19,644 nucleotides of DNA from a virus (IMGVR_UViG_2648501186_000019:1-19644); one strand, 5' to 3'. Positions 1,614-17,050 are shown, numbered from the stretch's first letter. The notes: generated by a model from the sequence alone, not told the origin. Numbers and translations: made by a program.

Positions 1614-1650
1614 GCCCCTATCGTTATAATACACGGTAGGGGCGTTTTTG
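1614..1650 (+). terminator. rho-independent terminator candidate upstream of the recombinase gene
   Basis: Stem GCCCCTATCG pairs with CGGTAGGGGC (one G-U pair) around a 10-nt loop containing TTATAAT, followed by GTTTTTGTTT. Confidence 0.55.
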
Positions 1651-1662
1651 TTTGGAAATGGT

Positions 1663-3342
1663 ATGAAAACTAAACTGTATTCGTATATTCGCTTCTCTTC
1701 AATGAAGCAAGCGGATGGTAGTTCTTATGAACGCCAAAAGAGAACAGCCGCAGAGATAGCCGCAAAATATGACCTTGAACTGGTTACTTCCTATCAGGAT
1801 TTTGGTGTATCTGCATTCAAAGGGGCTAACAGTAGAACAGGTGCATTATCTCGTTTTCTGGATGAAATTGGTCGATCCGTTCCGGTTGGTAGCTGGCTGG
1901 TTGTGGAAAACTTAGACCGTATCTCTCGCCAATCCATCATTGAAGCACAAGAGCTATTTCTCTCGATTATCCGTAGGGGAATAACTATCGTAACTGGCAT
2001 GGATGGTAAGGTCTATAGCAAGGAATCGGTTAATGCCAATCCTATTGATTTGCTGTTGAGTGTCATGTTGTTTGCGAGAGCTAACGAGGAAAGTCAGACT
2101 AAGCGCAATCGTACTAACTCAAGCGCATTGATTAAGATTAAAGCTCATCAAGAAAATCCACAAAATCCGGCTGTTGCAATCGAGGAAATTGGAAAGAATA
2201 TGTGGTGGACTGATACCACATCTGGTTATGTGCTTCCTCATCCGGTCTTCTTCCCTATTGTTCAGGAGGTTGTGGAATTACGCAGGAATGGACGGTCAAC
2301 CGCCGAGATACTGGATCACCTTAACGCGACATACACACCACCACCAGCCGCAAGTCACAAGAGGCATTCAAACTGGTCACGGGCAATGATTGAAAGGTTG
2401 TTCCATACCCGCGCTTTGATTGGTATCAAGGAAATCTCTGTAGATGGCGTTAAGTATGAGTTAAAGGATTATTATCCTCGTGTGCTAGATGACGCTGAGT
2501 TTTATCACCTTAAGAAAAGCATTGGTGTTAGAGCATGTAACTATGGAGACAAGGAAGAAGTTAAACCTATTCCCTTGCTTAGTGGTGTTGGTCTATTGAA
2601 ATGTGAACATTGCGGTTCCGCTATGGTTAAGGTGAAAGGAACTAACAAACGTCCTAACCAATATCGTTATTCATGCGATGCAATGCGCTCTAGTCGTATT
2701 GCATGTGTGCATACAAACTGGAGTTTTCGAGGTGATCAATTAGAGAAAGCTGTATTGCAATTGCTGGCTGATAAAATCTGGATTGCTGAGGATAAGGCTA
2801 ATCCGGTTCCGGCTTTGAAAGTACAGATTGATGAAATATCACGCAAGATTGATAACCTGATTACCCTTTCTGCTATGACAGGAGCAACGAAGGAGTTAGC
2901 CGACCAGATTACTACCCTCAATAGCGAGCGTGAAACACTCTACAATCAGATTAAGATGGCAGAAGAGGAAATGTATTCTGTGGACTCTCAAGGCTGGGAG
3001 AAGCTCGCAGAATTTGATTTAGAAGATGTTTATAACGAGGATCGCATTAAGGTCCGGTTTAAGATTAAGCAAGCTCTAAAACGGATCGGGTGTAGCAGGA
3101 TTGACAAATACAAAAACTTGTTTGTACTGGAATACATTGATGGTAAGACCCAGAGAGTTGTAATAGAAAATTCAAGAGGACCGAGGAAAGGCCGGATCTT
3201 CGTTGATTTGAAGACCATCAATGATAGGCAGATTCTGGAGAGTAACGGGCTTGTTTTGCATCCATGTTTAGACATGCTGACAGATAAGAACTGGAAACCA
3301 GAAGAGGAAATACCAGGTCCATTACAGGAATTTGGAATTTAA
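1663..3342 (+). CDS. large serine recombinase (serine integrase/resolvase family), 559 aa from ATG 1663
   Basis: N-terminal catalytic motif YSYIRFSSMKQ...SYERQ (Y-x-R-x-S nucleophile region), a large central domain, a Cys-rich zinc-ribbon-like segment (CEHCGS...YSCD...IACVH) and a coiled-coil-like stretch. The track start at 1648 is TTG; ATG 1663 is preferred. Confidence 0.9.
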   Translation: MKTKLYSYIRFSSMKQADGSSYERQKRTAAEIAAKYDLELVTSYQDFGVSAFKGANSRTGALSRFLDEIGRSVPVGSWLVVENLDRISRQSIIEAQELFLSIIRRGITIVTGMDGKVYSKESVNANPIDLLLSVMLFARANEESQTKRNRTNSSALIKIKAHQENPQNPAVAIEEIGKNMWWTDTTSGYVLPHPVFFPIVQEVVELRRNGRSTAEILDHLNATYTPPPAASHKRHSNWSRAMIERLFHTRALIGIKEISVDGVKYELKDYYPRVLDDAEFYHLKKSIGVRACNYGDKEEVKPIPLLSGVGLLKCEHCGSAMVKVKGTNKRPNQYRYSCDAMRSSRIACVHTNWSFRGDQLEKAVLQLLADKIWIAEDKANPVPALKVQIDEISRKIDNLITLSAMTGATKELADQITTLNSERETLYNQIKMAEEEMYSVDSQGWEKLAEFDLEDVYNEDRIKVRFKIKQALKRIGCSRIDKYKNLFVLEYIDGKTQRVVIENSRGPRKGRIFVDLKTINDRQILESNGLVLHPCLDMLTDKNWKPEEEIPGPLQEFGI

Positions 3343-3474: not shown

Positions 3475-3618
3475 TTATCAGAGAAAATTGTCTTACTATT
3501 GCATTCTCTATCTGGATGTGGGTATAGGCGGGATTGAATACGGCAAAACTGAAACATTCCACTACTGCAATAAATCACTAAACAATATAAAGAATATTGC
3601 AAGTGTGGAGTGGAACTA

Positions 3619-5109
3619 ATGCAAGATATTAAAATTCATTTTCAAGATTACAGTTTCGTTAAGGTTGATTGCTCTCCTTCTATCGGAATGGAATTAAGAG
3701 ATTATTTCTCGTTTGAGGTTGAAGGGGCTAGGTTTAGCCCCCGTTACAAGTATTCTGGCTGGGATGGACGAATAAGACTGTTTACGCATGAAAACACCCT
3801 ACCAATTGGACTATTAAAAACGTTGGGTGTCTTCGTTAAAAATATGGGCTATTCAGTCTGGATTGACCCCAGATTGCTTGAGAAGGAAGATGTAACCAAA
3901 GACGCGATTAATGAATGGATTGATTCCTTAGAAGTGTATTCCGGTAGCAATAAAATCAATCCTTATTGGTATCAAAGGGAGGCAGTCTTTCAGGGTATCC
4001 ACAATCGCCGTAGAATGCTGGTTCTTCCTACCAGTGCCGGAAAGTCATTGATTGCTTGTATGCTGTCTCGTTGGTACTTAGAGAACTACACCGGAAAAGT
4101 GTTAATCATTGTTCCGACTACATCGCTAGTGGTTCAAATGAGGGATGATTTCATCGATTATAGGCTATTCCCTTATGAAGCAATTCATACAATGATGAGT
4201 GGTAGCGGGAAACATCCGGGAGACAGGTTAATCACGGTTAGTACATGGCAATCAGCGTGCAAGATGCCTCCTGAATGGTTCAAACAATATGGAATGTTGA
4301 TAGTTGATGAATCGCATAAGGCTAGTGCCAAAAATATTACCAATATCATTAACGGAATGAATCATTGCCAATTTAAGATCGGCATGACTGGTTCCCCTAA
4401 AGAATCAAAATGCCATCTTTTACAGTATGTCGGACTTTTCGGTGATATTTCTAAGATCGTGAGTATTGACCGCCTGATGGAAGAAGGGCAGGTGACAAAA
4501 CTGAAAATTAACTGTCTTTTCCTTCGTTATACCGATGAGGAATGTAGCGCGGTTAAGGGGCGAGAATATGCGGAAGAGATCAAGTATATTACATCTAACC
4601 CACGACGAAATAAGTTTGCTTGCAATTTGGCGCTAAAACTCGCTAAGAAGGGCGAAAACGTATTCCTGATGTTCCGCAATACTAAGCACGGAAAACTTAT
4701 GTATGATGCGTTACAGAAGGTACACGACAAGGTTTATTATATTGACGGTGGAGTTAAGACAGAAGAACGAGACGAGTTCAAAAAATTAGCGGAAGGGGAA
4801 ACAGGGATCATTTGCGTTGCATCCTATGGTGTGTTCTCTACTGGTGTTTCCATCAAGAACTTGCATCATGTTATTTTCGGTCATCCAGTGAAGGAATCAA
4901 CTATCGTTCGTCAGAGTATCGGTCGTGCATTGCGTAAACATGGTTCTAAGGATATTGCAACGGTCTGGGATCTTATAGATCATTTGTGTATATTCGGTCG
5001 TAACGGAAAAGTCAAGCATAAAAATTATGCGGTAAAACATGCACTTGAGAGAATCCGCTATTATTTGACCGACAAGTTCAGCTATGCAACTAAAACAATT
5101 GCTATATAA
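3619..5109 (+). CDS. uvsW: SF2 DNA helicase of the T4 UvsW type (497 aa from ATG 3619)
   Basis: Walker A LPTSAGKS, DExH box LIVDESHKA, motif III-like TGSP, C-terminal helicase motifs (VASYGVFSTGVSIKNLHHV, QSIGRALRKHGSK). The N-terminus MQDIKIHFQDYSFVKVDC and overall pattern track the T4 UvsW sequence as I recall it. RBS GGAG 8 nt upstream of ATG 3619; the track start at 3610 is GTG. Confidence 0.85.
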   Translation: MQDIKIHFQDYSFVKVDCSPSIGMELRDYFSFEVEGARFSPRYKYSGWDGRIRLFTHENTLPIGLLKTLGVFVKNMGYSVWIDPRLLEKEDVTKDAINEWIDSLEVYSGSNKINPYWYQREAVFQGIHNRRRMLVLPTSAGKSLIACMLSRWYLENYTGKVLIIVPTTSLVVQMRDDFIDYRLFPYEAIHTMMSGSGKHPGDRLITVSTWQSACKMPPEWFKQYGMLIVDESHKASAKNITNIINGMNHCQFKIGMTGSPKESKCHLLQYVGLFGDISKIVSIDRLMEEGQVTKLKINCLFLRYTDEECSAVKGREYAEEIKYITSNPRRNKFACNLALKLAKKGENVFLMFRNTKHGKLMYDALQKVHDKVYYIDGGVKTEERDEFKKLAEGETGIICVASYGVFSTGVSIKNLHHVIFGHPVKESTIVRQSIGRALRKHGSKDIATVWDLIDHLCIFGRNGKVKHKNYAVKHALERIRYYLTDKFSYATKTIAI

Positions 5110-5141: not shown

Positions 5142-5495
5142 TTATCCATGCCAGCGTGATTTTTTCGATCTGGAATCGATATGCGTAAAGGTTTTATATT
5201 TGCCTAAGCCGTATTGAGTAGGATATTTCCCATCAAGATAAGCATGGACAATATCAGGAGAAATTCCTTTCACTGATATGTCGGCCGCACGGCCTCGAAC
5301 ATGATAGCTATTGGTTGCACCGCCTACATTCTTGTTATGAGTCGGACAACGGTTCCCGCTGTTAATAATTACTGGTTTCCCGAAGTGTTCGCGTACATCC
5401 TCAAGAATTACCAGCAGTTCAGCGTCGATAGTATCATAATCACATTTTCCGCATTTACATTTAAATTCCTTGCGAGAAAAATGCTTGCTTAACAT
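5142..5495 (-). CDS. endolysin, zinc peptidase M15 family (L-alanyl-D-glutamate peptidase / D-Ala-D-Ala carboxypeptidase-like), 117 aa
   Basis: H-x6-D zinc motif (SYHVRGRAADI) and downstream His (FTHID), as in Peptidase_M15 endolysins. ATG at 5495 has a strong AGGGGG Shine-Dalgarno sequence; the track start at 5531 is TTG. No signal peptide visible. Confidence 0.8.
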   Translation of the reverse strand: MLSKHFSRKEFKCKCGKCDYDTIDAELLVILEDVREHFGKPVIINSGNRCPTHNKNVGGATNSYHVRGRAADISVKGISPDIVHAYLDGKYPTQYGLGKYKTFTHIDSRSKKSRWHG

Positions 5496-5505
5496 ATTAC
5501 CCCCT

Positions 5506-5853
5506 TTAGATGTATTGCATAAGATACCCAATAAATCTGAGTCCCTTAATGTAATAAGGTGCTGTGCCTATGCATACCGCTCGTGCATCACCAATACAAT
5601 TGAAGTTGTAAGGGTTAACTACATCAATCTCCTGCCCTACACGGAAGCGGTATTTAGGACGTTTAGCGAGTGTCGCAACACAAAACACTAACCCGTTACC
5701 ATCATCGCGGATCATTTGCTTGAATTGTTTATGCTTTACTCTCTTCGCCTCGTAATCAAGTGTCATTGATTCAGGGCTAATGCCATTGATAAAAATACCG
5801 GAAAGCTGGTCGACCGGATAAGTAGGAAATTCAGTGAAAATATTTTTAGCCAT
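5506..5853 (-). CDS. hypothetical protein (115 aa), translationally coupled to the endolysin
   Basis: Strong GGGGGT Shine-Dalgarno sequence before ATG 5853; the stop is 10 nt before the endolysin ATG. No TM segment and no recognised motif; three Cys. Confidence 0.6.
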   Translation of the reverse strand: MAKNIFTEFPTYPVDQLSGIFINGISPESMTLDYEAKRVKHKQFKQMIRDDGNGLVFCVATLAKRPKYRFRVGQEIDVVNPYNFNCIGDARAVCIGTAPYYIKGLRFIGYLMQYI

Positions 5854-6498: not shown

Positions 6499-6669
6499 TT
6501 AGCCCCCTAATAACGAAAAGACCCCCGCCAGTGTCCTTAGCAATTGTTCATCCACGGTCATAGCCGGGAGTTCAAGCCCAAAGGACGTTAGCAGAGGTCT
6601 AATTGCTACGTTATAAGTGAGGGCGACAATCAAGAGATAACCAAAATATTTCTTAAGTTTATTCTTCAT
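6499..6669 (-). CDS. small membrane protein (56 aa from ATG 6669); holin-like or immunity candidate
   Basis: AAGGGG Shine-Dalgarno sequence 7 nt before ATG 6669. Sequence MKNKLKKYFGYLLIVALTYNVAIRPLL... has a basic N-terminus and one or two hydrophobic helices; no lipobox. Confidence 0.45.
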   Translation of the reverse strand: MKNKLKKYFGYLLIVALTYNVAIRPLLTSFGLELPAMTVDEQLLRTLAGVFSLLGG

Positions 6670-6688
6670 ATATTCACCCCTTTTATTA

Positions 6689-6967
6689 TTATTTTTGTCT
6701 GAGTAAATCGATAACTTGGTCAAATTTGGCGTCCATCGCAACCACTTTCTTCTCTATACCGTGAAGGGTTTGTTCCATGCGATAAACTCTCTCGGCGATC
6801 TGGTCATGGTTACTTTGCATTGTTTCAAACTTCTGATTAAACAATGCATCATTGGACTCTAATTTCGACAATCTATTTTCTGTTGCTATTTGATTTCGGT
6901 GAAGTCTCCATAATCCACCACAAATTAAGGCGATAACACCGATACCGCCATATATAATTTCAGTCAT
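6689..6967 (-). CDS. single-pass membrane protein with a coiled-coil domain (92 aa)
   Basis: N-terminal TM segment (IIYGGIGVIALICGGLW) followed by a charged helical region. GGGGG Shine-Dalgarno sequence before ATG 6967. First gene after the terminator downstream of the gpJ-like gene. Confidence 0.6.
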   Translation of the reverse strand: MTEIIYGGIGVIALICGGLWRLHRNQIATENRLSKLESNDALFNQKFETMQSNHDQIAERVYRMEQTLHGIEKKVVAMDAKFDQVIDLLRQK

Positions 6968-7011: not shown

Positions 7012-7054
7012 GATAAAAATAATCCCGCCTAACTCAAAAGAATTAAGCGGGATT
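7012..7054 (-). terminator. rho-independent terminator after the gpJ-like gene (- strand)
   Basis: 8-bp stem AATCCCGC / GCGGGATT (7021-7028 with 7047-7054), followed on the - strand by a U-rich run (AUUUUUAUCU). Confidence 0.6.
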
Positions 7055-7073: not shown

Positions 7074-10000
7074 TTAAGAAACAGTAATACCAGTAGTGGC
7101 TTTTTTAGTTACCATTACTGTTAAATCACTGATCCATGTGCTAGGCGTCCAGTTGTTGATTGCGCTTGATTGCACTTCAAAGGTCAAGGTCACAGCACCT
7201 TTACCCGCTGGCATATCAATAACACCTGAGTAAAGACCAGTATTACCGCCATACGCCCTATTATACAACTCTGACCCATTCTTACGAACAATCAGGCGAC
7301 AGGTGTCGTAATAGGTATTATTGTTCGACCCTTCACGCGCTCGCAATCCACCAAAACTAACAGCCGGAATAACGATTTGACGATCGAACTTGTGATCATC
7401 TTCAACGCGAACAGTGACCGTACCCTGTGGATAACCAGCATAACCATTATCAACGTTAACATCACGATGCGGGAACTTACGTCCAATCACCTTAACGAAA
7501 TCACCCTTAACCTGAGTAGCTTCAAGCATACCCTTAATAACACAGCTAGAGTTAATCGTGACGTTGTTCAGAGTACCAGAATCAGCAGTGATATTACCTT
7601 TAACGGTTGCATTCATGAACGTAGCGGACCCGTTCTTGTTGATATGCCATCCGGTCGATCCGTTCCAGTTGGAAGACTGGATATAGTTACCGATTTTAGC
7701 GTTATCAATTGCACCGTTTACGATCTTCGCGTTAGTGATTGCCCCGTCCTGAATCTTCGCGCTGTTAATTGCAGCATTGCCGATTTTAGCCGTGGTAATC
7801 GCCGCATCATTAATCTGGGCTGTACCAATTGCAGCATTACGAATCATCGCATTATCGAGATAAACCTTGTTACCTTCGATACCAAACGGGCATACTTCCG
7901 ATCCGTTCTGTGGAGCTACCGCGATTTTATCGGCATTAAAGATGATTCTCGTCGGTTGCGCCGGATCGTTGGTTGCGCTCATGTGAATACCAGCCACGCG
8001 ACCATCTGCATTAACCGCTAGATTGTATTTGCTGTTAATGGTTCCTTTCAAAGCATCGATTTTTACATCTGCTTCCTGATTCACACCAGCAATCTTGCCA
8101 TCCATTTCTACCCGAACTTGATCAATCTTACTTGCGCTTGCTGCCTCACTGGTAGCAATAGCTTGTTTCAGGGTAGTAGCAGATGCGCTGACTTCGGATT
8201 TAATATCGCCTTTCAGTTCAGCTTTAACCTGATCAATCTTAGTGGAGCTAGCTTGCTCGCTGGTAGCAATCAGACTCTTTAAGGTATTGGCTGAGGCTTG
8301 GACCGTCTGCCCTGTTTCGGTAGTGATTTGCTTATGCATTGCATCAATTTTAGCATCGGCATTAGCGCCAGCTTGAGCAATAGCATCCGCGATAGTTTCA
8401 TCTAAGCGGTCTTGTAAACCAATCAGGTCTTCCAGTGCTTCTTTGTCCTGATCGTCCCAGCTAATGGTAGATTTCATTTGCATGAAATACGGTTCAGACC
8501 AAACAGCATCATCCATACCGAAAATATCGTAGTGAGCACCACGGATATAATAATCACCGTCAGCAATATCAAAGGAAGTATGGCTAACACTATTCGTGCT
8601 TACTGCCCTTGCATCGGAGAACGTGTTATCGGTTGCATACTGGATGATTGACCCTGCATAATCATGTTCTACGTCATCTGCCCAGCTAACAAACGCAGTA
8701 TTAAAGCCACCACGCGCACTAAAACCTTTCATTGGCTTATGTTGTGGGTTGATAGCCACTAAACGCGCTGGGGCGCTCTCTGAGTTGTTATATCCCTTAG
8801 CTGATACTTCTACCGTCAGTTGACGCGAAAGGCCGTTAAACTGGTTCATATCAAGCGTATAAGTCCATGATTCAGGATCGCGGGTACGGTACTGAATAGA
8901 CTTACCAGCCTTGTTAGTCACCTTGATAATGTATGCTTCAAACAGGTCACTAAACTTGTTAGTTTCACCGTTGATCTCAACATCTAAGCCTTGCTGGTTA
9001 TCCCATTCGATAATCAGATCATTACCTTCGAAAGTTCCTGGCGTGCTACCCTGATTTTTGATTCGAATAACCGGAGTCGGCAATTCATAGGTAACAGTCG
9101 GATTCTGGTTAATCAGTTCTACCCAATCGGATCGCGCGATGATACCGAAAGCACAAACTCGGTAATCATAAGAGCGATCTTTCGCCAGTGCATTGACACT
9201 GAAAATTTGCTGTGAAGTCTGACCGAGCTTAATCCAGTTAGGTGATCCGCTTACACGGTAATCAATCTGGAAGCCATAACGGTTAAAATCTTCCGGTGCA
9301 TCCCATGTCAAAGTAACATTTTTACCGTAAATCGTCTCGCCAGTTGCCTTAATTCTGAAATTAGTAGGCTTCTGTACTGTCATTGAATCCGGTAAACCAC
9401 TTGGTCTATTGTCCGGTTTAGCCGCATAATCCAGATCTGTGTAAATCTGAGAATTATATTCTGTGGCGGTGATAGACAAAATACCAGCAATACCAGAATC
9501 AATGCTACGCTCAATAGAGATAATACGCCAAAGTGAATTATTCAGTTTCAATTCATCGTGGGTAACGCTGATAACGTCCCAAACTTCCGCGCTGAATGCA
9601 TCGGTAGTAGTGAAGTTGATAACCTGAGTAATACGAGATTTATTTCGTTCAATGCTCGCTAATTTGTCAATCTGGTTTTCATCTTTAACAAAGCGATATT
9701 CTACGTCTTTAGCAATAATGCGCCCATCTTGACGGATAGTAGCATCATTTTCAGCATCAGCCGGATAACGTAGCATTTGCTCTGAATAGTCTAAAGATGG
9801 TTCCTGATAGATTGCGTTAATGGTATTGAAATAACCGTTAGTGCCACCTGTTTTCAGGTTAACTTTCCCCATCATTATATTGTCTTCATTGAAGGTATGT
9901 TTAACAATATCAGGAGCATCCAGTTTCAGCGTAATACGTCCAAAGGATTCAAACATTACCCCGCCGAAAGTCTGCATCAATCCGGTCAAGTTCTCTTTAA

Positions 10001-10856
10001 AGCTGGCGTTCGGATCACATGCACCGTTAGAGTGCAAATTCATCTGGCGAACTTGAGAACGTACTTTCAGGAATGAATCAACGTTAATGTTTTCAATTGG
10101 TACTGATAAACCATATTTTTCATTTGTTAGGTAGTGGAAAATCTGATCCACGCCGTTAGTGCTAGCCTCAATAGCATTGGTTTCAAGGTTACGAATCTTT
10201 AATCCGCAAACGTCTACTGCTACCTGGCTATTTGGCTGGAGAATATCAACACCAGCAGCAAGAGATTTGTCATCACGACGTAACACAATACACATGGTTG
10301 CAATGCCGTTACCCTTGTAAGCATCGGTCCAGTCTGAGCCTAAATGAGTTTTTGCCAGTGACAATGCGGTGTTAGGATTCTTACCCGTGCGGAACTCGAC
10401 TTCTAACACTTTACGGTATTCTTCTTTAATGTTGCCCTTATCGAGAATGCCATCACGGATCGTCATGTTTCGACCAATCAGCACGTTTTTATTATCGATG
10501 AATAGTGCTTTGTAATGGTCAATTTCACCCTCGGCAATTGCGAAGATTTGCACTAACTTATTGTTTTCTTTCTTAGAAATTGCTTTGTAAACACAGATAG
10601 CACCAGTTCGAGTAGTACCAAAAATAACTGGTAATACTGTTTTAGGATCGTTTGATGTTCCTAGTGTCACTGCGTTATCTGGGCTTTGTACCTTCGGTGT
10701 TTTCGGTGCGCCTACAGTGGAAGCAATCAAAGACAATGCACCAGCACCAATACCGATAGCAACAGCCGCTAATGTTGAAATTGCCGCCACGGAAGCAGCA
10801 GCCATCCCAGCCGACGCACCAGCAATAACCGCGCCGACCAATACTTCTACGCCCAT
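7074..10856 (-). CDS. tail tip central fibre / host specificity protein (gpJ-like) with an N-terminal gpI-like domain and a lambda-J-type C-terminal receptor-binding domain (1260 aa)
   Basis: ATG 10856 with a GGGGG Shine-Dalgarno sequence, overlapping the upstream stop. Residues 1-50 are a Gly/Ala-rich hydrophobic segment, followed by APKTPK...VLPVIFG..R.G, reminiscent of the lambda gpI C-terminal half. The middle has FN3-like segments, a duplicated helical segment and 8-residue (A)IxNAKI repeats. The C-terminus (DDHKFDRQIVIP...VIDMPAGKG...VMVTKKATTGITVS) follows the pattern of the lambda J C-terminal domain as I recall it. Confidence 0.9.
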   Translation of the reverse strand: MGVEVLVGAVIAGASAGMAAASVAAISTLAAVAIGIGAGALSLIASTVGAPKTPKVQSPDNAVTLGTSNDPKTVLPVIFGTTRTGAICVYKAISKKENNKLVQIFAIAEGEIDHYKALFIDNKNVLIGRNMTIRDGILDKGNIKEEYRKVLEVEFRTGKNPNTALSLAKTHLGSDWTDAYKGNGIATMCIVLRRDDKSLAAGVDILQPNSQVAVDVCGLKIRNLETNAIEASTNGVDQIFHYLTNEKYGLSVPIENINVDSFLKVRSQVRQMNLHSNGACDPNASFKENLTGLMQTFGGVMFESFGRITLKLDAPDIVKHTFNEDNIMMGKVNLKTGGTNGYFNTINAIYQEPSLDYSEQMLRYPADAENDATIRQDGRIIAKDVEYRFVKDENQIDKLASIERNKSRITQVINFTTTDAFSAEVWDVISVTHDELKLNNSLWRIISIERSIDSGIAGILSITATEYNSQIYTDLDYAAKPDNRPSGLPDSMTVQKPTNFRIKATGETIYGKNVTLTWDAPEDFNRYGFQIDYRVSGSPNWIKLGQTSQQIFSVNALAKDRSYDYRVCAFGIIARSDWVELINQNPTVTYELPTPVIRIKNQGSTPGTFEGNDLIIEWDNQQGLDVEINGETNKFSDLFEAYIIKVTNKAGKSIQYRTRDPESWTYTLDMNQFNGLSRQLTVEVSAKGYNNSESAPARLVAINPQHKPMKGFSARGGFNTAFVSWADDVEHDYAGSIIQYATDNTFSDARAVSTNSVSHTSFDIADGDYYIRGAHYDIFGMDDAVWSEPYFMQMKSTISWDDQDKEALEDLIGLQDRLDETIADAIAQAGANADAKIDAMHKQITTETGQTVQASANTLKSLIATSEQASSTKIDQVKAELKGDIKSEVSASATTLKQAIATSEAASASKIDQVRVEMDGKIAGVNQEADVKIDALKGTINSKYNLAVNADGRVAGIHMSATNDPAQPTRIIFNADKIAVAPQNGSEVCPFGIEGNKVYLDNAMIRNAAIGTAQINDAAITTAKIGNAAINSAKIQDGAITNAKIVNGAIDNAKIGNYIQSSNWNGSTGWHINKNGSATFMNATVKGNITADSGTLNNVTINSSCVIKGMLEATQVKGDFVKVIGRKFPHRDVNVDNGYAGYPQGTVTVRVEDDHKFDRQIVIPAVSFGGLRAREGSNNNTYYDTCRLIVRKNGSELYNRAYGGNTGLYSGVIDMPAGKGAVTLTFEVQSSAINNWTPSTWISDLTVMVTKKATTGITVS
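7692..7859 (-). repeat. imperfect 24-nt (8-codon) tandem repeats inside the gpJ-like gene
   Basis: Protein-level repeats NAAIGTAQI / NDAAITTAKI / GNAAINSAKI / QDGAITNAKI / VNGAIDNAKI and matching DNA periodicity. Confidence 0.5.
8117..8330 (-). repeat. roughly 110-nt imperfect tandem duplication inside the gpJ-like gene (helical shaft segment)
   Basis: DNA blocks at about 8117-8227 and 8228-8330 share TGATCAATCTTA...GCTTGCT..CTGGTAGCAAT. Protein segments TLKSLIATSEQASSTKIDQVKAELKGDIKSEV and TLKQAIATSEAASASKIDQVRVEMDGKIAG are clear paralogues. Confidence 0.45.
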
Positions 10857-11275
10857 AGATCACCCCCAAAGCGATAAGCATCGTTATAATCAATTTCGTA
10901 AATCGGCTTGGTCGTCCAGATTCCATCTTCGGTAACGAGTCCATAGCCAGAATAATAAGGAGTCACGGAGTAATACTTACGGTTTCCTAATTTGTGATCG
11001 CGGATCAATAGATCGCCGTCCTGTAAATCATCAGTAACTAATTTAAAATGTTCTTTGATAGGCTGGAGGATATTGGTATATCCGCTAAGTTCTTTACAGA
11101 CTTTCAAGCCTTCTTCTTTCGTTGAATATTTTTTATAAAGAGAATTATATAGGTCAGTTCCAGCGAGAATATCGATGATCTTACATGCAATTAAATTGCA
11201 ATCATTCTCGCCTTGAACGAACTCCTGACCTACTAATGAATTGATGTAATCAGTGATAAGCCTAGTTTTTAGCAT
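10847..11275 (-). CDS. tail tip assembly protein, gpK-like with NlpC/P60-type Cys/His residues (about 142 aa)
   Basis: ATG 11275 preceded by GGAGG at 8-nt spacing. Motif GENDCNLIAC and downstream His (IRDHKLG) are consistent with a papain-like NlpC/P60 fold. Position between the gpL-like and gpJ-like genes. The track ORF extends to 11521 but overlaps the upstream gene. Confidence 0.5.
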   Translation of the reverse strand: MLKTRLITDYINSLVGQEFVQGENDCNLIACKIIDILAGTDLYNSLYKKYSTKEEGLKVCKELSGYTNILQPIKEHFKLVTDDLQDGDLLIRDHKLGNRKYYSVTPYYSGYGLVTEDGIWTTKPIYEIDYNDAYRFGGDLWA

Positions 11276-11324: not shown

Positions 11325-11978
11325 TTACTTTTTAGAGCTAAACCATTTTGATTCCGCGTTCCAGCGACCCGCCCTTGAGAAGAATAGATCGTTCTCGTTT
11401 CCTGGGTATGAGCGATGAATACCATCAGAAGCATGACTACGAGCGTTTTTATCGAGAACTTCCCAGATACTATTAAGCTGGAACTCTGATTCGTTGGTAC
11501 ATTCTTTATCCTTGTAGTCAATAGAAATATTGATGTTATCGACTACACCACGGAAAACAGGGTAAGTGGTTTCAACCTTGCCCGTGTTGGGGTTCAAGAA
11601 TACCATTTCGATTTTCACATCTGATTTATCGAATTGCTTGTTTCGAATGAGAGTAATGTATTCTTCTCGAACGTTCGAAACGTTAACGGTGATCCCGTTG
11701 TTGTTGATTTCTTTTTCTTCGGAGTTGGAAGAAATATCAAGAAAGTCACCGCTAGCGAGATAGGTAAATCCGTTATAGTCTAAGTCAAAGTACCCATCTG
11801 TAAGCCGTAGAACGTCCCCTGACGCGGTAATCACTTCGATAATGTGAAACATCGATCCGGTGGAAAAAAGCTGCGGTAGCGTCAATCTGGTAACTTCCTG
11901 CCCCGTCTGGTCGTTGTATACCTCGATAAAGTCAATATTGGTACAGAGTTTATTAAATGCGTCTTGAATAGTAGCCAT
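11325..11978 (-). CDS. minor tail protein, gpL-like (217 aa)
   Basis: Synteny (TMP, M, L, K, J) and N-terminal and mid-region resemblance to lambda gpL as recalled. Start ATG overlaps the upstream stop (TAATG). Lacks the C-terminal Cys cluster of lambda L. Confidence 0.55.
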   Translation of the reverse strand: MATIQDAFNKLCTNIDFIEVYNDQTGQEVTRLTLPQLFSTGSMFHIIEVITASGDVLRLTDGYFDLDYNGFTYLASGDFLDISSNSEEKEINNNGITVNVSNVREEYITLIRNKQFDKSDVKIEMVFLNPNTGKVETTYPVFRGVVDNINISIDYKDKECTNESEFQLNSIWEVLDKNARSHASDGIHRSYPGNENDLFFSRAGRWNAESKWFSSKK

Positions 11979-12538
11979 TATACATTCTCCACTAATTCAA
12001 ATTTCATCTTGCCAATCTGGGCGATGTTCCAATCGATGTTTTCAGTAGTGAGAAGAAATTCACCTTCAACGTTCTGATACTTGATCACCTCACCCGCTAG
12101 GACGTTCTGACGCAAGTTAGGGAAGAGTTTCATTTCACCACCTGATTTCACGTCTTCGGTGATCGTGTAGATTTTCTTGTGGTTCTCAAACTGGATGATA
12201 GTTCCCGCTTTCAGTGTTCCGGTGAAGTTGGAGAGTCTCACCTTACGCCCACCGCGAGCAGTACCAGCAGCAGCCGTAACCATCTGGCGTACATCACCTG
12301 TATATTTTGAAAAGTAAGACAGCGGAACAGTGAACGGACGACCAAAAAGGTGACGTGCTACAAATTCTTTTACTTCGTTAATATCCTGAGCCATGAAATT
12401 AGCTGTAAATTCTGCTTCATAGTAATGAATACCAGTAAAGCGACGCTGGAACTTACCAGAAATGGATTGCGCCTTGAAGAAAGGTTGTTTTGATTTAAGA
12501 GTAAAATCTGTGATTTTAATATTCTTGGATTTGAACAT
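11978..12538 (-). CDS. minor tail protein, gpM-like N-terminal region with a C-terminal extension (about 186 aa)
   Basis: First gene after the tape measure. ATG around 12538 is preceded by GGGGG inside the hairpin; the track start at 12574 is a GTG lying within the hairpin stem. Weak resemblance to lambda gpM in the first 100 residues. Confidence 0.5.
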   Translation of the reverse strand: MFKSKNIKITDFTLKSKQPFFKAQSISGKFQRRFTGIHYYEAEFTANFMAQDINEVKEFVARHLFGRPFTVPLSYFSKYTGDVRQMVTAAAGTARGGRKVRLSNFTGTLKAGTIIQFENHKKIYTITEDVKSGGEMKLFPNLRQNVLAGEVIKYQNVEGEFLLTTENIDWNIAQIGKMKFELVENV

Positions 12539-12541
12539 AGA

Positions 12542-12588
12542 AAAAGCCCCCATAGTTTTATGATTATTTATCACTATGGGGGCTTTTA
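12542..12588 (-). terminator. perfect 14-bp inverted repeat hairpin between the tape measure and gpM-like genes; attenuator/terminator candidate
   Basis: AAAAGCCCCCATAG ... CTATGGGGGCTTTT with an 18-nt AT-rich loop, an A-tract on one side and a T-tract on the other. The loop contains GATAAATA. Coordinates are +/-1. Confidence 0.5.
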
Positions 12589-12589
12589 A

Positions 12590-15109
12590 TTACATTCTAC
12601 GACGCTGGGCGTCTTCTACTGCTTGGGCAACAAGTTTCGGATGGCGTTTAATCGCTTCCATTACCATTGCATCAGAGCTATTAACGTTACCGCTAATTTG
12701 CAAAGGAGCATGTACCTCAATCGGCTGAGAGTTACCAGTGTTACCGGATTTCTGGTTAGCTAAGAAGTCTTTCAGATCGCCGTTAGTACGATCATCAACA
12801 ACTCGTTCCCCTTTCTGTAACAGCCATGTACCCTCACGCGGGATGTTATCAATACCGTCATGCGCCATACCGTCAACAGAGATTGATTTCATCTGCGCAA
12901 CACGAGCGATTGCAGAAGCATAGCTAGCAGCACCCATCGCAACACCCAACGGTCCAGGATACTTAGCCATAGCCTTAGTTGCGGCTTCGTGTGCGTTCAT
13001 CATACCCATTGCGATAGAAACGCCTTTCTGTGCTGCAAATAGTCCCTTAGTAACAGCGTTATTCTCTAAGCCAAATGCTTGTAACGCCTCACCAAATCCA
13101 CCGAACATATCCTGTGTATCTTGCAAGCGCATGTTATTGTATTTTAAGTCAATTTCACGCATTTTCTTTTGATGCGCTTCATTGAGTGCTTGCAGTGCTT
13201 TAAATTGTTCAGCTTGAGGCAGTTTATCAATGTTGGCTTTATGGGTAGCGTAATCAGCATTAGCATTATCAACATCAACGGCTTTCATCTCGTCAATAGT
13301 CTGATCACGTTCACCGAAGGAGTTAGCTAGACCACGAGATTTGATTTCTTGTAGTCCATCGGTCGCACCAGTACGGCCTTTGTAAGCATCTTCAATACGC
13401 TGTTTTTCTGCCAGATAATCCGCTAATTTGATGTTTTTATTCTGGTAGTTTTCTTCCAGATCTTTAAGGCTTTGTTCATAAACCTGTTTAGAAGCAGCCA
13501 ACATTTGCAGGGCTTCCATTGGATTTGCACCTAATACAGATTTACGGAAGTTTTCCGCGTTAGCATTAATTAGCTGGCGTCGTTTCTCTTCGTATTGTTC
13601 TTGCGTGATAATACCCTGTTTAAGAGCGTTATCTAACTTAGCAAGGTTTTCGGTAATCTGACGGTTAGAAGACGCCACAGCAGCTTGTGACGAGCTATAC
13701 AAAGAGATATTGATGGCCTTCAAATCATTGTAGGCTTTTTCTCTTAATTTTTTGGCTTCGTCTGCGGCTTTCTTCGCTGCATCTTTAGCTTTCTTGGTTT
13801 CTGGACAATCTGCGGCTGAATGCGCACCTTGCTTACATACAGGGCAAAGAGATTGAACACGGCGTTTATTCTCTTCTTCCTGTTTCTTTTTCAGTTCATC
13901 GGCTTGTGTTTGCAGTTCAGCAGCTTTGCGTTTGCGTTCTTGTTCTGCTAGATCTTCGAAGCTGGTTGCAGCACCGTTACTAACACCGCTTGCGATGGCT
14001 TCCTCTACCGCATCACCTAATGCTTTAGCACCTTTCTTGATGTTATCGGTAGTCAATGCTGGGATTTCAAAATCAAGAAAATCGGCATCAGCACCAAACC
14101 AGCCAGCAATAGTTTTACCACCCTTGCGGATCGCATTCTGTACTTTAGCGATAATCTCGGCTAGTTTGTTGTACAGATTAATCATTGTTTCCTGTACAGT
14201 TTTAACCGTCTTGATTATCGGGTTAATTGCTGTAAGTAGAGCATCCTTAGCTTTCTGGAATAACGGCGGGAGATTTTCGGTCACAAACTTACTAATAGCT
14301 TTCATACTCAAATAGAAAGTAGTATTAGTAAAATCCTTGTTGAAATAATCATAGATTAAGTTGAATCCTTTCGGGAGGAACGAAAATACATCCGCGAAAG
14401 CACCCATTACCGTTTTACCTAAAGCGGTCAAATTAGAACTTGCGTTTGAATACGCGGTCGCTGTTTCTTCTGAGACATAAGCGGCTTGTTGTTGGAGCTT
14501 AACTTGATGTTCCCAATAGTCGTTTGATTCAGACAAAGCACCGATCATCTTACTGGAATCAGAAGCAATTCGTTCCATACCCGCGATAATTTCAGAATGG
14601 CTTAGTCCTGCGGCTTTAGCTTGGTAATACCACATTTCAGCAGCTTTGCGACCGCCTTCTGGATCATCGGTAAAGGCTGCATAATCCTTGATATCGCCTT
14701 TGATCATTTTAAGCGCGGCTTGAAATTCCCCTGTACCGTCTCGCCATGCTTCCCCTAATTTCTCGGCTGCATCCTTGTTAATATCAAGAACTTTTTCGGC
14801 ATTCAGACCAAAGCCACTATAGACTTTTTCCATCTTCTGAATTTGTTCGATATTAACACCAAATTCTTTCGACATATTGGCATATTCGATAGCCATTTTT
14901 GCGCCACCAGCAGCAAGGGCAGTAAGAGCACCCAAAGCAGCACCAGCAGCCATCCCCAATGGACCCAGCTTACCTAACAATCCACTGATAGAGCCAGTTA
15001 AATTACCGACACCACCGGAGGCAAGACCATCAAGAATACCACTTGCTTTATCTGCGGCAGATTCAAGACCACCAGTAACGCCAGTAATATCAAATCTTAA
15101 TTCTGACAT
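12590..15109 (-). CDS. tail tape measure protein (839 aa)
   Basis: Position directly after the chaperone pair; length comparable to lambda gpH; long helical charged repeats and Gly/Ala-rich hydrophobic segments. Strong AAGAGG Shine-Dalgarno sequence before ATG 15109. Confidence 0.85.
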   Translation of the reverse strand: MSELRFDITGVTGGLESAADKASGILDGLASGGVGNLTGSISGLLGKLGPLGMAAGAALGALTALAAGGAKMAIEYANMSKEFGVNIEQIQKMEKVYSGFGLNAEKVLDINKDAAEKLGEAWRDGTGEFQAALKMIKGDIKDYAAFTDDPEGGRKAAEMWYYQAKAAGLSHSEIIAGMERIASDSSKMIGALSESNDYWEHQVKLQQQAAYVSEETATAYSNASSNLTALGKTVMGAFADVFSFLPKGFNLIYDYFNKDFTNTTFYLSMKAISKFVTENLPPLFQKAKDALLTAINPIIKTVKTVQETMINLYNKLAEIIAKVQNAIRKGGKTIAGWFGADADFLDFEIPALTTDNIKKGAKALGDAVEEAIASGVSNGAATSFEDLAEQERKRKAAELQTQADELKKKQEEENKRRVQSLCPVCKQGAHSAADCPETKKAKDAAKKAADEAKKLREKAYNDLKAINISLYSSSQAAVASSNRQITENLAKLDNALKQGIITQEQYEEKRRQLINANAENFRKSVLGANPMEALQMLAASKQVYEQSLKDLEENYQNKNIKLADYLAEKQRIEDAYKGRTGATDGLQEIKSRGLANSFGERDQTIDEMKAVDVDNANADYATHKANIDKLPQAEQFKALQALNEAHQKKMREIDLKYNNMRLQDTQDMFGGFGEALQAFGLENNAVTKGLFAAQKGVSIAMGMMNAHEAATKAMAKYPGPLGVAMGAASYASAIARVAQMKSISVDGMAHDGIDNIPREGTWLLQKGERVVDDRTNGDLKDFLANQKSGNTGNSQPIEVHAPLQISGNVNSSDAMVMEAIKRHPKLVAQAVEDAQRRRM

Positions 15110-15172: not shown

Positions 15173-15557
15173 TTAATCTGCGGTCGCCCTTAACTTATTG
15201 ACTAACGCCGGATCAAACATGCTCAACATTGCAGCTTTGCGATCTTCTTCTTTCTTACGCTCGATTTCTTCCAGTTCTTCTTTAGTCTTGAAGATTTTCT
15301 CTTCTTTGATTAACTGGAATTGGCTAGGTTTAATTTTATTAGCCATTTCTTTAGTCATTCCCTGAGAAGTCATATAAAGGGAATATTGAAGCATAGCGTT
15401 TTGCATGTCATGAAATGCGGGGGATTGTGGTTCTAAGTAAGTGTCGAAAATATGCAGTGACCAAAAAAGTGTCACTGGCATATTATCCATTTCATCTTTA
15501 CTCAATCCACGCCGCATCATCTGGCGGAAGTAGAAAGTTAAGAGCGGGTTTACTTTA
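15173..15557 (-). CDS. frameshift extension of the tail assembly chaperone (GT-like product), -1 frame relative to 15550-15858
   Basis: The -1 frame is open from 15571 through the G stop, and its first ATG (15520) has no Shine-Dalgarno sequence. The 21-nt overlap contains GGTAAAGTAA (15550-15559), where a P-site Lys slip from AAG to AAA is possible at the stop codon. Confidence 0.45.
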
Positions 15558-15858
15558 CCGATTCTTCTACCTTACTCGGTTCCGGCATCATAGAAGCCAG
15601 AGCAACCAGACCGATCAATTGTGCTTTAACAGTTGTGTAAAGGGCTTTAACTTGTTTAATATTAGTGAAAACTGGTTTACCGCTTTCATCTTCGATACAT
15701 TTCAGAATAGTACGTTCGTCGCGGTCTTCTTTATTGTTATTCTGAATGTGCTCGTTAAATTCCTGTACGCTCATCGGACGGGCATAAAATTTAAAGCCGT
15801 TGATTTCCATTGCTTCGCGTTTCGGGGAAAGAGCTTTCATTAAATCGTTGATATTCAT
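15550..15858 (-). CDS. tail assembly chaperone (gpG-like), 102 aa
   Basis: Small acidic protein immediately upstream of the tape measure with an overlapping -1 ORF. GAGGAAA Shine-Dalgarno sequence before ATG 15858. Confidence 0.6.
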   Translation of the reverse strand: MNINDLMKALSPKREAMEINGFKFYARPMSVQEFNEHIQNNNKEDRDERTILKCIEDESGKPVFTNIKQVKALYTTVKAQLIGLVALASMMPEPSKVEESVK

Positions 15859-15880: not shown

Positions 15881-15897
15881 ATTACGATATATTTATG
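15881..15897 (-). promoter_or_regulatory. CATAAATA box plus TATCGTAAT; second copy of the 15-nt motif seen at 945-959
   Basis: The - strand reads CATAAATATATCGTAATCATT; the box ends 31 nt upstream of ATG 15858 (30 nt at the + strand copy). It overlaps the stop codon of the 168-aa gene. Confidence 0.35.
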
Positions 15898-16399
15898 TGA
15901 TCTTTAAACTCTGCTTAGTGCCAGTCTTCTTAATGTTGGTAAGGAAAGCAGCCGGAGGATTGCTTAACCAATAGTAATGAAAACCACTTTGCATACTGTT
16001 ATAAGGAACAGTGACAGTAGCACCACCCAAATTAACGGTTATATTCCCCGCTCTACCGTTCTGGAGATATACAGCCATAGTAGGAGTACCGCCATTGAAT
16101 TGACCAACGATAACGCCAATCAGACGCCCTACGCCCACGTTTTCGGGGTTCTCCATAGATCCTTTACCGCGCATGTCAGTTACTGGATAGTTTGAAGCAG
16201 TTACACCCCAGTTATTACCCAATGAAGTAGACCACGATGCAGTAGCAACAACCGTATCCATACCACGACCACACATAGCACTCATGTTAGCTGGGCGACT
16301 AACCTTTAATGCGTTCATTGCTGCGGTCATCCATCGTTGACCAGTTACAGAAACAGCAGATGACCCGACCCAGCCGGGCTTATTAACGACATTTGCCAT
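15893..16399 (-). CDS. hypothetical tail-module protein (168 aa), Gly/Ser/Thr/Asn-rich
   Basis: GGAG Shine-Dalgarno sequence 9 nt before ATG 16399, just downstream of the terminator hairpin. Composition suggests a beta-rich structural protein; could alternatively be the tube subunit. Confidence 0.55.
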   Translation of the reverse strand: MANVVNKPGWVGSSAVSVTGQRWMTAAMNALKVSRPANMSAMCGRGMDTVVATASWSTSLGNNWGVTASNYPVTDMRGKGSMENPENVGVGRLIGVIVGQFNGGTPTMAVYLQNGRAGNITVNLGGATVTVPYNSMQSGFHYYWLSNPPAAFLTNIKKTGTKQSLKIT

Positions 16400-16573: not shown

Positions 16574-17050
16574 TCATCCACCAACAGTAAAGATCTTCTG
16601 TGGAACGGGCTTGCCATCAACCGCAAACGTCAGTTCACGCTGTACGACGCTCTCGTCATCACCAGTCAGATTGACTTTAGAAATGAATCCGTTAAATGCA
16701 GTACGAATACCAGTCTGCTTATCCGCTGATACGTAATACTCTACTTTAATCTGGATTCGAGTGCCGTCTTCGGCAGCTTTAATGAGCTTCTCGTGTACCG
16801 CATCACCCGGAATGTAGTTGATCACCAGTTCCAGATCAGGAACGTTCAGTTTACCAACCAGCTTACGGTTATACTGAGAAGAGAACGACTTCACCTCAAC
16901 CGTGCCCCTCTCAATGGAGTAGGAAGGCCAACCAGCACACTCTTTAATTTCTTCGTATGCTTCATCAGCAAGATCGGTGTTAGTGGTATCAGCGTGATAG
17001 AACAGACTTACCAAACCACCAGTAAAAATATCTTTGAATTGTTGAGACAT
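16574..17050 (-). CDS. major tail (tube) protein candidate, 158 aa
   Basis: Strong AAGGGG Shine-Dalgarno sequence; located upstream of the chaperones and tape measure; size and beta-rich sequence typical of small siphovirus tube proteins. Ends in TGA, followed in the same frame by 41 open codons (16451-16573). Confidence 0.55.
   Translation of the reverse strand: MSQQFKDIFTGGLVSLFYHADTTNTDLADEAYEEIKECAGWPSYSIERGTVEVKSFSSQYNRKLVGKLNVPDLELVINYIPGDAVHEKLIKAAEDGTRIQIKVEYYVSADKQTGIRTAFNGFISKVNLTGDDESVVQRELTFAVDGKPVPQKIFTVGG

Follow-up and report, generated by a model that had tools for sequence, protein, structure and literature searches.

The window analysed here is a stretch of viral DNA of 19,644 nucleotides (IMGVR_UViG_2648501186_000019:1-19644), which covers 19.6 kb of an E. 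coli prophage of about 35-45 kb. Its minus strand encodes the tail operon of a siphophage, with the tail-tip gene at 7074..10856 followed by a terminator and then by a lysis cassette. The product of this gene is a central-fibre protein related to gpJ of phage lambda, and our comparisons support the view that it begins with a segment homologous to the C-terminal half of another lambda tail protein, gpI (TAPI). A first-pass annotation had described the open reading frame (ORF) as encoding 1260 amino acids on the minus strand, with an ATG start, a GGGGG Shine-Dalgarno sequence, and a 10-nucleotide overlap with a gpK-like gene upstream. This description was confirmed from the sequence, the TAG of the upstream gene being at 10849-10847 and the ATG of the tip gene at 10856-10854. 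As the in-frame stop that precedes the ATG is separated from it by a single codon, no alternative start could include the hydrophobic segment; a downstream alternative start was rejected as well. The Prokaryotic Genome Annotation Pipeline (PGAP) names an orthologue with the identical overlap "phage tail tip domain-containing protein," and strain RMDEC332, also annotated by PGAP, has the same 10-nucleotide overlap and a protein of 1250 amino acids. The features of the tip gene start and of the gene before it are as follows.

7074..10856, minus strand: tail-tip/central-fibre protein with a gpI-C-like module fused at its N terminus (ATG, 1260 amino acids; from the ORF list and translation)
10713..10856, minus strand: Gly/Ala-rich hydrophobic segment, residues 1-48, counterpart of gpI helices H1/H2 (lambda ~101-152), from hydropathy and the hhalign alignment to gpI 106-152
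10659..10712, minus strand: plug counterpart, residues 49-66 (GAPKTPKVQSPDNAVTLG), matching lambda APKARTPRIQTTDNGKQN at residues ~156-175, from the alignments and the plug definition of PMC11101478
10566..10658, minus strand: counterpart of the gpI C-terminal beta-strands, residues 67-97 (..DPKTVLPVIFGTTRTGAICVYKAISKKE), from hmmsearch, hhalign, and the strands of the AlphaFold2 (AF2) model
10863..10867, minus strand: GGGGG Shine-Dalgarno-like run, 6 nucleotides 5' of the ATG and within the 3' end of the K-like gene, read from the sequence
10847..11275, minus strand: K-like gene, 142 amino acids, DUF6950 (PF22262, E 2e-11), with its stop 10 nucleotides inside the tip gene

The N-terminal module and lambda gpI

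The tip protein opens with a hydrophobic segment of about 48 residues, followed by APKTPKVQSPDN...VLPVIFGTTRTG. Residues 1-48 include 15 Ala, 7 Gly, 7 Val, 5 Ile, 5 Ser, and 4 Leu, and the only 19-residue spans with a Kyte-Doolittle hydropathy above 1.6 in the entire protein lie within them, while residues 50-85 read APKTPKVQSPDNAVTLGTSNDPKTVLPVIFGTTRTG. This N terminus is common to all relatives that we collected for building profiles, which came from E. coli, Salmonella, Citrobacter, phage DCP80, and metagenomes and share 28-91% identity. Within the hydrophobic segment, M1, G8, A9, and I11-A14 are invariant in the family.

Compared singly, residues 1-110 gave a BLASTP alignment to lambda gpI with E 1e-4 and 32% identity across gpI 105-223. 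In a phmmer search of 177,635 PDB sequences, the three best matches were lambda gpI chains, with E values of 0.1-0.75. Among the PHROG families, matches were obtained with phrog_5616 (E 1.3e-6), with positions 181-295 of phrog_31, "central tail fiber J" (E 9e-5), and with phrog_4554 of the gpI family (E 0.062). As these single-sequence scores of the window N terminus are weak, the case for homology to gpI rests on family profiles. Profile A1 comprised the first 100 residues of the relatives, and profile A2 comprised eight diverse gpI proteins, from lambda, Samwise, Rtp, D14P, phi1026b, Acba_4, Mcat27, and EP23. When A1 was searched against the PDB with hmmsearch, gpI was the only significant match (8iyk_I, E 2.1e-6), and the 90-residue gpI chain of 9E7M, from which most of the hydrophobic part is absent, was matched with E 2e-5 and a bias of 0.1. 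The first-pass annotation had read the N terminus as the C-terminal half of lambda gpI fused to a J-type protein and had proposed a profile comparison with the gpI family. The comparison of A1 with A2 by hhalign, made from the family profiles, was significant, with a probability of 94.4% and E 9.2e-8, and paired residues 22-95 with gpI 135-211. The real score of 48.9 stands against 17.2 +/- 3.4 (maximum 27.7) in 100 shuffles, in which columns were permuted while the composition of the hydrophobic and polar halves was each kept, and against 14.7 for the reversed profile. Searching in the reverse direction, a hidden Markov model (HMM) of the gpI C-terminal half found the DCP80 orthologue at E 1.4e-5 among 1266 ORF pieces. 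Several family members scored 19-26 bits with this HMM and the window protein 7.4 bits with a bias of 9.9. The DCP80 N terminus was also matched by PHROG 32, the gpI family (positions 103-199 of 203, E 1.8e-4), and by PHROG 4554 (E 2.4e-5).

The likeness to gpI could be compositional, the N terminus being an unrelated membrane anchor or signal-like segment that serves, for instance, as an inner-membrane tether during assembly. Half of the module is indeed Gly/Ala/Val-rich sequence of low complexity, the single-sequence scores are marginal, and the only near-match at the N terminus in Pfam is a transporter transmembrane segment, Pfam and NCBIfam having given no match for residues 1-110. The gpI family of Pfam, PF06805, covers only the ubiquitin-like (Ubl) half of gpI, so its absence is uninformative on the C-terminal part of TAPI (TAPI-C). 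However, hhalign still pairs the polar half by itself with gpI 173-195 at E 2.6e-5, none of the shuffles that preserve the composition of each half comes near the real score, and the short gpI chain of 9E7M is matched almost free of compositional bias. Moreover, the alignment runs unbroken into the N terminus of gpJ, and the position of the gene is that of I. We consider convergence very improbable. The profile-profile and profile-sequence tests, together with an ORF conserved in many independent assemblies, bear out the reading of the first-pass annotation and support the view that residues ~6-97 and the C-terminal half of lambda gpI are homologous.

A further homologue search, made with the N-terminal profile, found nothing beyond close relatives and fragments. 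An exhaustive search of representatives gave 16 matches, of which about 12 were true, all of them N-terminal in long proteins. The matches to P0027, P0029, and P0031 were rejected as false positives, as these are unrelated proteins with many tandem domains, in which the VLPVIFGTTRTG motif is imitated by a strand, "..VPVVFTETRTDG.." or "AIPLAFGDSVMG", that occurs repeatedly. Their case is a caution against searches that use a motif alone.

The junction, the fused gene, and the K-like protein

To compare the order of the parts with that in lambda, gpI was joined to the N-terminal ~170-200 residues of gpJ for seven phages, and these concatenates were aligned with the family alignment of residues 1-260. 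Residues 6-231 fell into one continuous hhalign alignment with gpI 106-223 and gpJ 1-157 (97.7%, E 1.6e-12); its sole gap takes in the final ~12 residues of gpI and the initial ~20 residues of gpJ. With the gpJ N termini only, residues 98-230 aligned with gpJ 21-156 (91.2%, E 9.8e-7). The same order is found in phrog_31, where lambda gpI matches positions 132-276, lambda gpJ matches from 263 onward, and the first 110 residues of the window protein match 181-295. The continuous alignment implies that the boundary between the lambda I and J genes corresponds here to a loop of about four residues (ENNK), which sits between the strand AICVYKAIS and the strand LVQIFAIAEGEI. The AF2 model of residues 1-510 has a mean predicted local distance difference test (pLDDT) score of 73.5, with values below 50 for residues 1-66 and of 76-94 from residue 70 on. 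In this model, the strands at 81-85 and 87-93 (pLDDT 76-86) form a hairpin (81-93) that is continuous with the hub.

A rival reading is a polyprotein, in which the I-like segment would be cut off after translation, by the DUF6950 peptidase or another protease, to leave a free gpI-like peptide in the virion as in lambda. Translational coupling links the K-like gene, which encodes an NlpC/P60-like fold with a conserved Cys and His, to the tip gene; lambda gpK is required for assembly yet absent from virions (PMC10721106), and gpK has been proposed to process gpI (PMC1779556). In addition, the AF2 model shows the junction KKENNK (residues 95-100) as a short polar loop that joins two strands. However, neither a cleavage motif nor conservation of the junction was found, residues 95-100 differing across the family, and AF2 residues 81-120 form one continuous, confident sheet. 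Furthermore, the proposal of PMC1779556 has the JAB domain cutting after the Ubl domain, both of which are absent here, and the megatron proteins of RcGTA and roseophage R4C retain their N-terminal domain in the virion (PMC7296036, PMC10276861). Release of the segment by any protease thus seems unlikely to us, and the narrower version, in which the coupled DUF6950 K protein cleaves a fused precursor at the I/J junction during tail assembly, is one that we would hardly expect to hold. If it did, phage K-type NlpC/P60 proteins would be tip maturation proteases, instead of or besides cell-wall hydrolases, and it would become clear why lambda gpK is needed for assembly yet missing from virions.

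The fused gene itself is widely conserved. The region was found in 56 of the 5,426 complete E. coli genomes, always in the chromosome, and in 54 of the 56 the match spans 80% or more of the queried stretch. The uninterrupted ORF is present in at least 54 complete E. coli genomes, at 87-98% nucleotide identity. In all 41 IMG/VR loci, the hydrophobic N terminus is continuous with a long ORF and a K-like ORF with the GxNDC motif lies just upstream; in 37 of the 41, the tip ORF runs on without a stop for over 920 codons, as far as the fetched DNA extends. The module is also found, with a shorter hydrophobic segment, in Vibrio phage henriette 12B8, and the fused state is listed for the protein relatives P0001-P0008 and P0021-P0035. 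The first-pass annotation had raised the possibility that a frameshift or an assembly error merged a short I gene with J, and beyond this a priori concern nothing speaks for it. The same intact ORF recurs in the complete E. coli genomes and the 41 IMG/VR contigs, the fused ORF is also present in relatives at 28-50% protein identity, and the I-like and J-like strands are only ~4 residues apart. The artefact is therefore rejected, effectively refuted by the conservation across assemblies, and the re-sequencing that had been proposed is unnecessary.

Several copies of the tip gene are cut at 333-660 codons (P0004, P0008, P0007/L047, L017, and L026), some of them in 5-Mb E. coli chromosomes, and these shortened copies are likely to belong to decaying prophages. 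The IMG/VR contigs that carry the element (L014-L054) are 30-45 kb long. The closest GenBank phage record, DCP80 (L002, PQ671644), is 141 kb long and is filed under Straboviridae/Gaprivervirus, with motA and endonuclease VII genes nearby; this record may be chimeric or misclassified.

The first-pass annotation had also stated that a separate I gene is lacking, and this holds in the window: the K-like gene stops 10 nucleotides inside the 1260-residue ORF, and there is no ORF between the two either in the ORF list of the window or in the RMDEC332 annotation. Likewise, the ubiquitin-like domain, which it had regarded as missing or relocated, gave no signal in the window or in four related loci. 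PF06805 (Lambda_tail_I) matched none of the window ORFs scanned, compared with E 1.1e-28 for lambda gpI, and an HMM of the gpI N-terminal half found nothing in the six-frame translation of the window or in those of DCP80, two Vibrio phages, and one E. coli prophage. A relocated Ubl gene inside the window was therefore rejected.

The label "gpK-like" given to the upstream gene stands for the NlpC/P60 half of gpK, represented here by DUF6950, and fails for the JAB half. Whereas lambda gpK has Prok-JAB and NLPC_P60 domains, no Prok-JAB/MPN match was found in the K-like protein. Its AF2 model has a pLDDT of 89, and the best folds are those of the NlpC/P60 endopeptidases MepS, SagA, and LytE, with TM-scores of 0.5-0.58 and modest E values of ~1e-2. 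In the family, Cys26 is invariant and His94 nearly so. BLASTP against gpK and phmmer against the PDB gave nothing for this protein. Versions of K with an NlpC/P60 domain only were reported in 2006, and the JAB and Ubl domains were proposed to be one functional unit (PMC1779556), a proposal with which their joint absence here is in keeping.

The remainder of the protein and of the window

Beyond the N-terminal module, the tip protein comprises a hub, fibronectin type III (FN3)-like repeats, and a fibre that ends in a receptor-binding domain.

9417..10565, minus strand: baseplate-hub domains of the HDII-HDIV type, residues 98-480, from hhalign to gpJ N termini and Foldseek; the start is collinear with lambda gpJ 21-157
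8457..9389, minus strand: FN3-like repeats, residues ~490-800, limits approximate, from a weak Pfam fn3 match (510-572, E 0.012) and PHROG tail-fibre families
7653..8408, minus strand: coiled-coil/Phage_Tail_Tip region, residues ~817-1068, with PF09327 at 934-1018 (E 1.3e-20) and PDB matches to T1, F2-pyocin, and other J-like fibres
7077..7652, minus strand: lambda-J-type stalk and receptor-binding domain, residues 1069-1260, with Ig_GpJ_C PF12421 at 1126-1260 (7077-7481; E 7.9e-34)
7021..7054, minus strand: intrinsic terminator closing the tail operon, directly 3' of the tip gene, a 15-bp stem followed by ATTTTTATCT

The C terminus follows the lambda J receptor-binding pattern, as the first-pass annotation had noted, with PF12421 covering the last 135 residues. 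Against the PDB, the last ~190 residues matched A8 gpJ with E 2e-54 and 53% identity and lambda gpJ with E 1e-35 and 42% identity. A8 gpJ is a chimera whose C terminus, taken from a natural E. coli phage, uses OmpC (PMC11338833). Given 53% identity to this OmpC-specific protein, it is a reasonable inference that the receptor is a porin, most likely an OmpC-like one. The designation "gpJ-like" is thus appropriate by sequence for the last ~190-400 residues, but not for the hub (~98-480), which is structurally nearer to pb3 of phage T5. In Foldseek searches with the hub, T5/DT57C pb3 was the best match, with E ~1e-25 (7zhj_b, 3.2e-25), a TMq of 0.66, and a root mean square deviation of 3.5 A. It was followed by phage Chi, lambda gpJ (8k35_A, 8iyk_F) at E ~1e-15, the RcGTA megatron (6tba_8A) at E 2.7e-15, JBD30, Sf11, and T1. 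BLASTP of residues 1-480 against lambda gpJ was not significant, and no gpJ similarity was seen at this level over the N-terminal ~800 residues. The full-length lambda TipJ model (NCBIfam NF049904) gave 202.5 bits, contributed by the last 190 residues alone, where its cut-off is 1950. One source calls an orthologue "fibronectin type III domain-c...."

The other genes of the tail operon lie upstream of the K-like gene.

11325..11978, minus strand: L-like hub protein (HDI/attachment domain, DUF2163 type), PF09931 E 1.2e-5 and phrog_2048 E 1e-25
11978..12574, minus strand: distal tail protein (gpM/pb9 counterpart), phrog_1302 "distal tail protein" E 5.7e-17 and a weak match to the pb9 B-domain
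12590-15109, minus strand: tape measure protein, SHOCT-like match
15550-15858 and 15173-15520, minus strand: G/T-type chaperones, a TAC-type ORF (PF16459) and then a T-like ORF (weak PF06223) in another frame
15893-16399, minus strand: Gp38-N-domain ORF
16574-17050, minus strand: tail tube protein
17107-19587, minus strand: fibre protein of 826 amino acids, with the T4 gp34 trimerisation domain PF21446 (E 1.4e-28) and an S74 intramolecular chaperone

PGAP calls the L-like orthologue "DUF2163 / baseplate hub domain-containing protein." Near its N terminus, the tape measure protein carries a Gly/Ala-rich hydrophobic stretch of its own (GPLGMAAGAALGALTALAAGGA), and a CPVCKQGAHSAADCPE motif lies in its middle. 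The layout of the two chaperone ORFs (15173-15858) is the usual one for a G/GT programmed frameshift. The ORFs at 15893-16399 and 17107-19587 place T4-type fibre parts on a siphophage tail. On the other side of the tip gene, the ORFs at 1648-3342 (plus strand), 3610-5109 (plus strand), 5142-5531 (minus strand), and 6499-6967 (minus strand) comprise a large serine recombinase, a UvsW-like helicase (PF21241, E 2e-34), an M15 peptidase, and small transmembrane/coiled-coil ORFs. The peptidase and the small ORFs look like a lysis cassette. The RMDEC332 copy has IS911 beyond the recombinase, and the recombinase side of the window is probably one end of the prophage.

Comparison with known tail tips and a proposed role

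In the tip cone of lambda, three gpI molecules lie inside, with helices H1/H2, a plug at residues 159-175, and strands that thread the gaps of the gpJ hub domains; once LamB has been bound, the hub is open, the plug no longer engaged, and H1/H2 disordered, and insertion of these helices into the outer membrane has been proposed (PMC11101478, PMC10721106, PMC12617516). The C-terminal beta-strands of gpI augment the sheets of the hub domains. Comparing the tip protein with lambda gpI (TAPI; PHROG 32; PDB 8IYK, 8XCG, and 9E7M chain I), both have a two-helix hydrophobic segment, an APK..P..Q..DN plug, and VLPV(L/I)(Y/F)G..R.G strands in the same order, and both are encoded right after K and right before the hub/fibre protein or part. 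The motif of the gpI C-terminal module, (V/I)P(V/L)xYGxxRVG, is fitted by the tip N terminus at the level of the profile and marginally by the window sequence alone. However, gpI is a separate protein of ~190-225 residues between K and J, whereas the present module is not separate and lacks the Ubl domain of PF06805. About 12 C-terminal residues of gpI and 20 N-terminal residues of gpJ are replaced here by the ~4-residue loop, and the partner K protein is without a JAB domain. With lambda gpJ and A8 gpJ (PDB 8XCJ, 9WCA; PMC11338833), the tip protein shares the last ~190 residues, including Ig_GpJ_C. The PF09327 region before them and, by Foldseek and hhalign, the hub domains HDII-HDIV are shared with lambda gpJ, whereas the N-terminal ~800 residues are without BLASTP similarity to it.

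Fusions of TAPI and TAPJ "in some prophages" were reported in 2006 by Iyer, Burroughs, and Aravind (PMC1779556). In these and in the fused members of PHROG 31, as in the tip protein, I-type sequence is covalently joined to J-type sequence, the I-like positions 132-276 of phrog_31 standing ahead of the J-like ones. The 2006 fusions were found through the Ubl domain and so presumably retain it, whereas the present protein has TAPI-C only.

The megatron proteins of RcGTA (g15) and roseophage R4C are large hub proteins whose N-terminal penetration domain has been structurally characterised: their first ~45 residues, a hydrophobic segment that forms transmembrane helices, make up an iris that closes the channel, are proposed to pierce the outer membrane, and are predicted to become a pore in it (PMC7296036, PMC10276861). 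This segment agrees with that of the tip protein in position, length, and hydrophobicity, although no sequence match between the two was obtained. The gene order of the megatron baseplate module (distal tail protein, DUF2163 hub, NlpC/P60 peptidase, and large hub/adhesin protein) and its hub fold recur here. Unlike the tip protein, the megatron has no lambda-J fibre or receptor-binding domain and binds separate fibres. In T5, the plug is part of pb3, and gpL and gpI plus gpJ's N-terminal part have been equated with pb3 (PMC10721106). T5/DT57C pb3 (PDB 7ZHJ, 8HQZ) is the best structural match for residues ~70-480 and has its plug in the same chain, the equivalence of the plugs being one of position only; a weak phmmer alignment pairs residues 74-122 with pb3 263-311. 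However, pb3 includes HDI, whereas an HDI-type domain (PF09931/DUF2163) is encoded here by the separate L-like ORF. The plug of pb3 is an insertion in HDII, whereas the present one is an N-terminal extension, and the T5 receptor-binding protein pb5 is separate, whereas the present receptor binder is on the same chain.

A lambda-type module in a megatron-type position is most economically read as having the same role, tethered in cis. We therefore consider it probable that the first ~97 residues are a covalently attached equivalent of TAPI-C, acting as a lumen plug with membrane-inserting helices on the hub. The module would comprise a pair of hydrophobic helices, a short plug, and beta-strands locked into the hub domains, and the chain would run from TAPI-C through a T5-pb3-like hub (HDII-IV) and FN3 repeats to the lambda-J-type fibre and receptor-binding domain. 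Going by the structures of lambda, T5, and RcGTA/R4C, three N termini in the lumen of a trimeric tip would plug the channel and hold the C terminus of the tape measure protein. Binding of the C-terminal domain to an outer-membrane porin, for which an OmpC-like protein is the best guess, would then open the hub and release the plug, and the freed hydrophobic helices would insert into the outer membrane to start a conduit for DNA. On this scheme, the JAB(K)-Ubl(I) pair of lambda would be an accessory that the present lineage has dispensed with.

Several results weigh against this reading. Plug and membrane insertion are still a proposal even for lambda. The N terminus of the window protein is marginal when taken singly (phmmer E 0.1-0.75; phrog_4554 E 0.062; 7.4 bits), half of the module is hydrophobic sequence of low complexity, and an eight-sequence gpI HMM searched against the six-frame translation of the window did not find the tip ORF at a significant level (E ~1-2 after bias correction). 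AF2 gave no confident structure for residues 1-66. The exhaustive search described above, which covered 1.84 billion proteins, yielded no free-standing gpI at E <= 1e-3. Profile A1 matched no RcGTA/R4C megatron chain and no T5 pb3 in the PDB at E <= 10, which leaves the link to these proteins one of position and fold only. The gpI profile likewise matched gpI-family chains (lambda, T1, and F2 pyocin) and neither pb3 nor the megatron.

The arrangement is less new than the first-pass annotation had assumed (PMC1779556, PMC7296036, PMC10721106); its interpretation was essentially right but over-valued, and the fusion is a variation on an arrangement already known from other phages. What appears to be undescribed and unannotated is the recognisable TAPI-C homology of the N terminus of this family; the Ubl-less and JAB-less state of the fusion and its mosaic make-up, in which a pb3-like hub bears a receptor binder of the lambda-J type, also appear to be undescribed. 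Our analysis offers a functional label for the unannotated first ~100 residues of a tail-tip family present in ~1% of complete E. coli genomes. For phage engineering, the protein presents a receptor binder of the lambda type, probably directed at OmpC, on a non-lambda hub. It would also be a natural case of a plug/penetration module that works although the Ubl domain (I) and the JAB domain (K) are both missing, suggesting that this pair is accessory and not part of the core machine. Hubs may be made up of one to three polypeptides (PMC13243795), and the I/J gene boundary of lambda maps to a loop of what is elsewhere a single chain, supporting the emerging view that the siphophage hub is one modular unit, split variously into one, two, or three genes.

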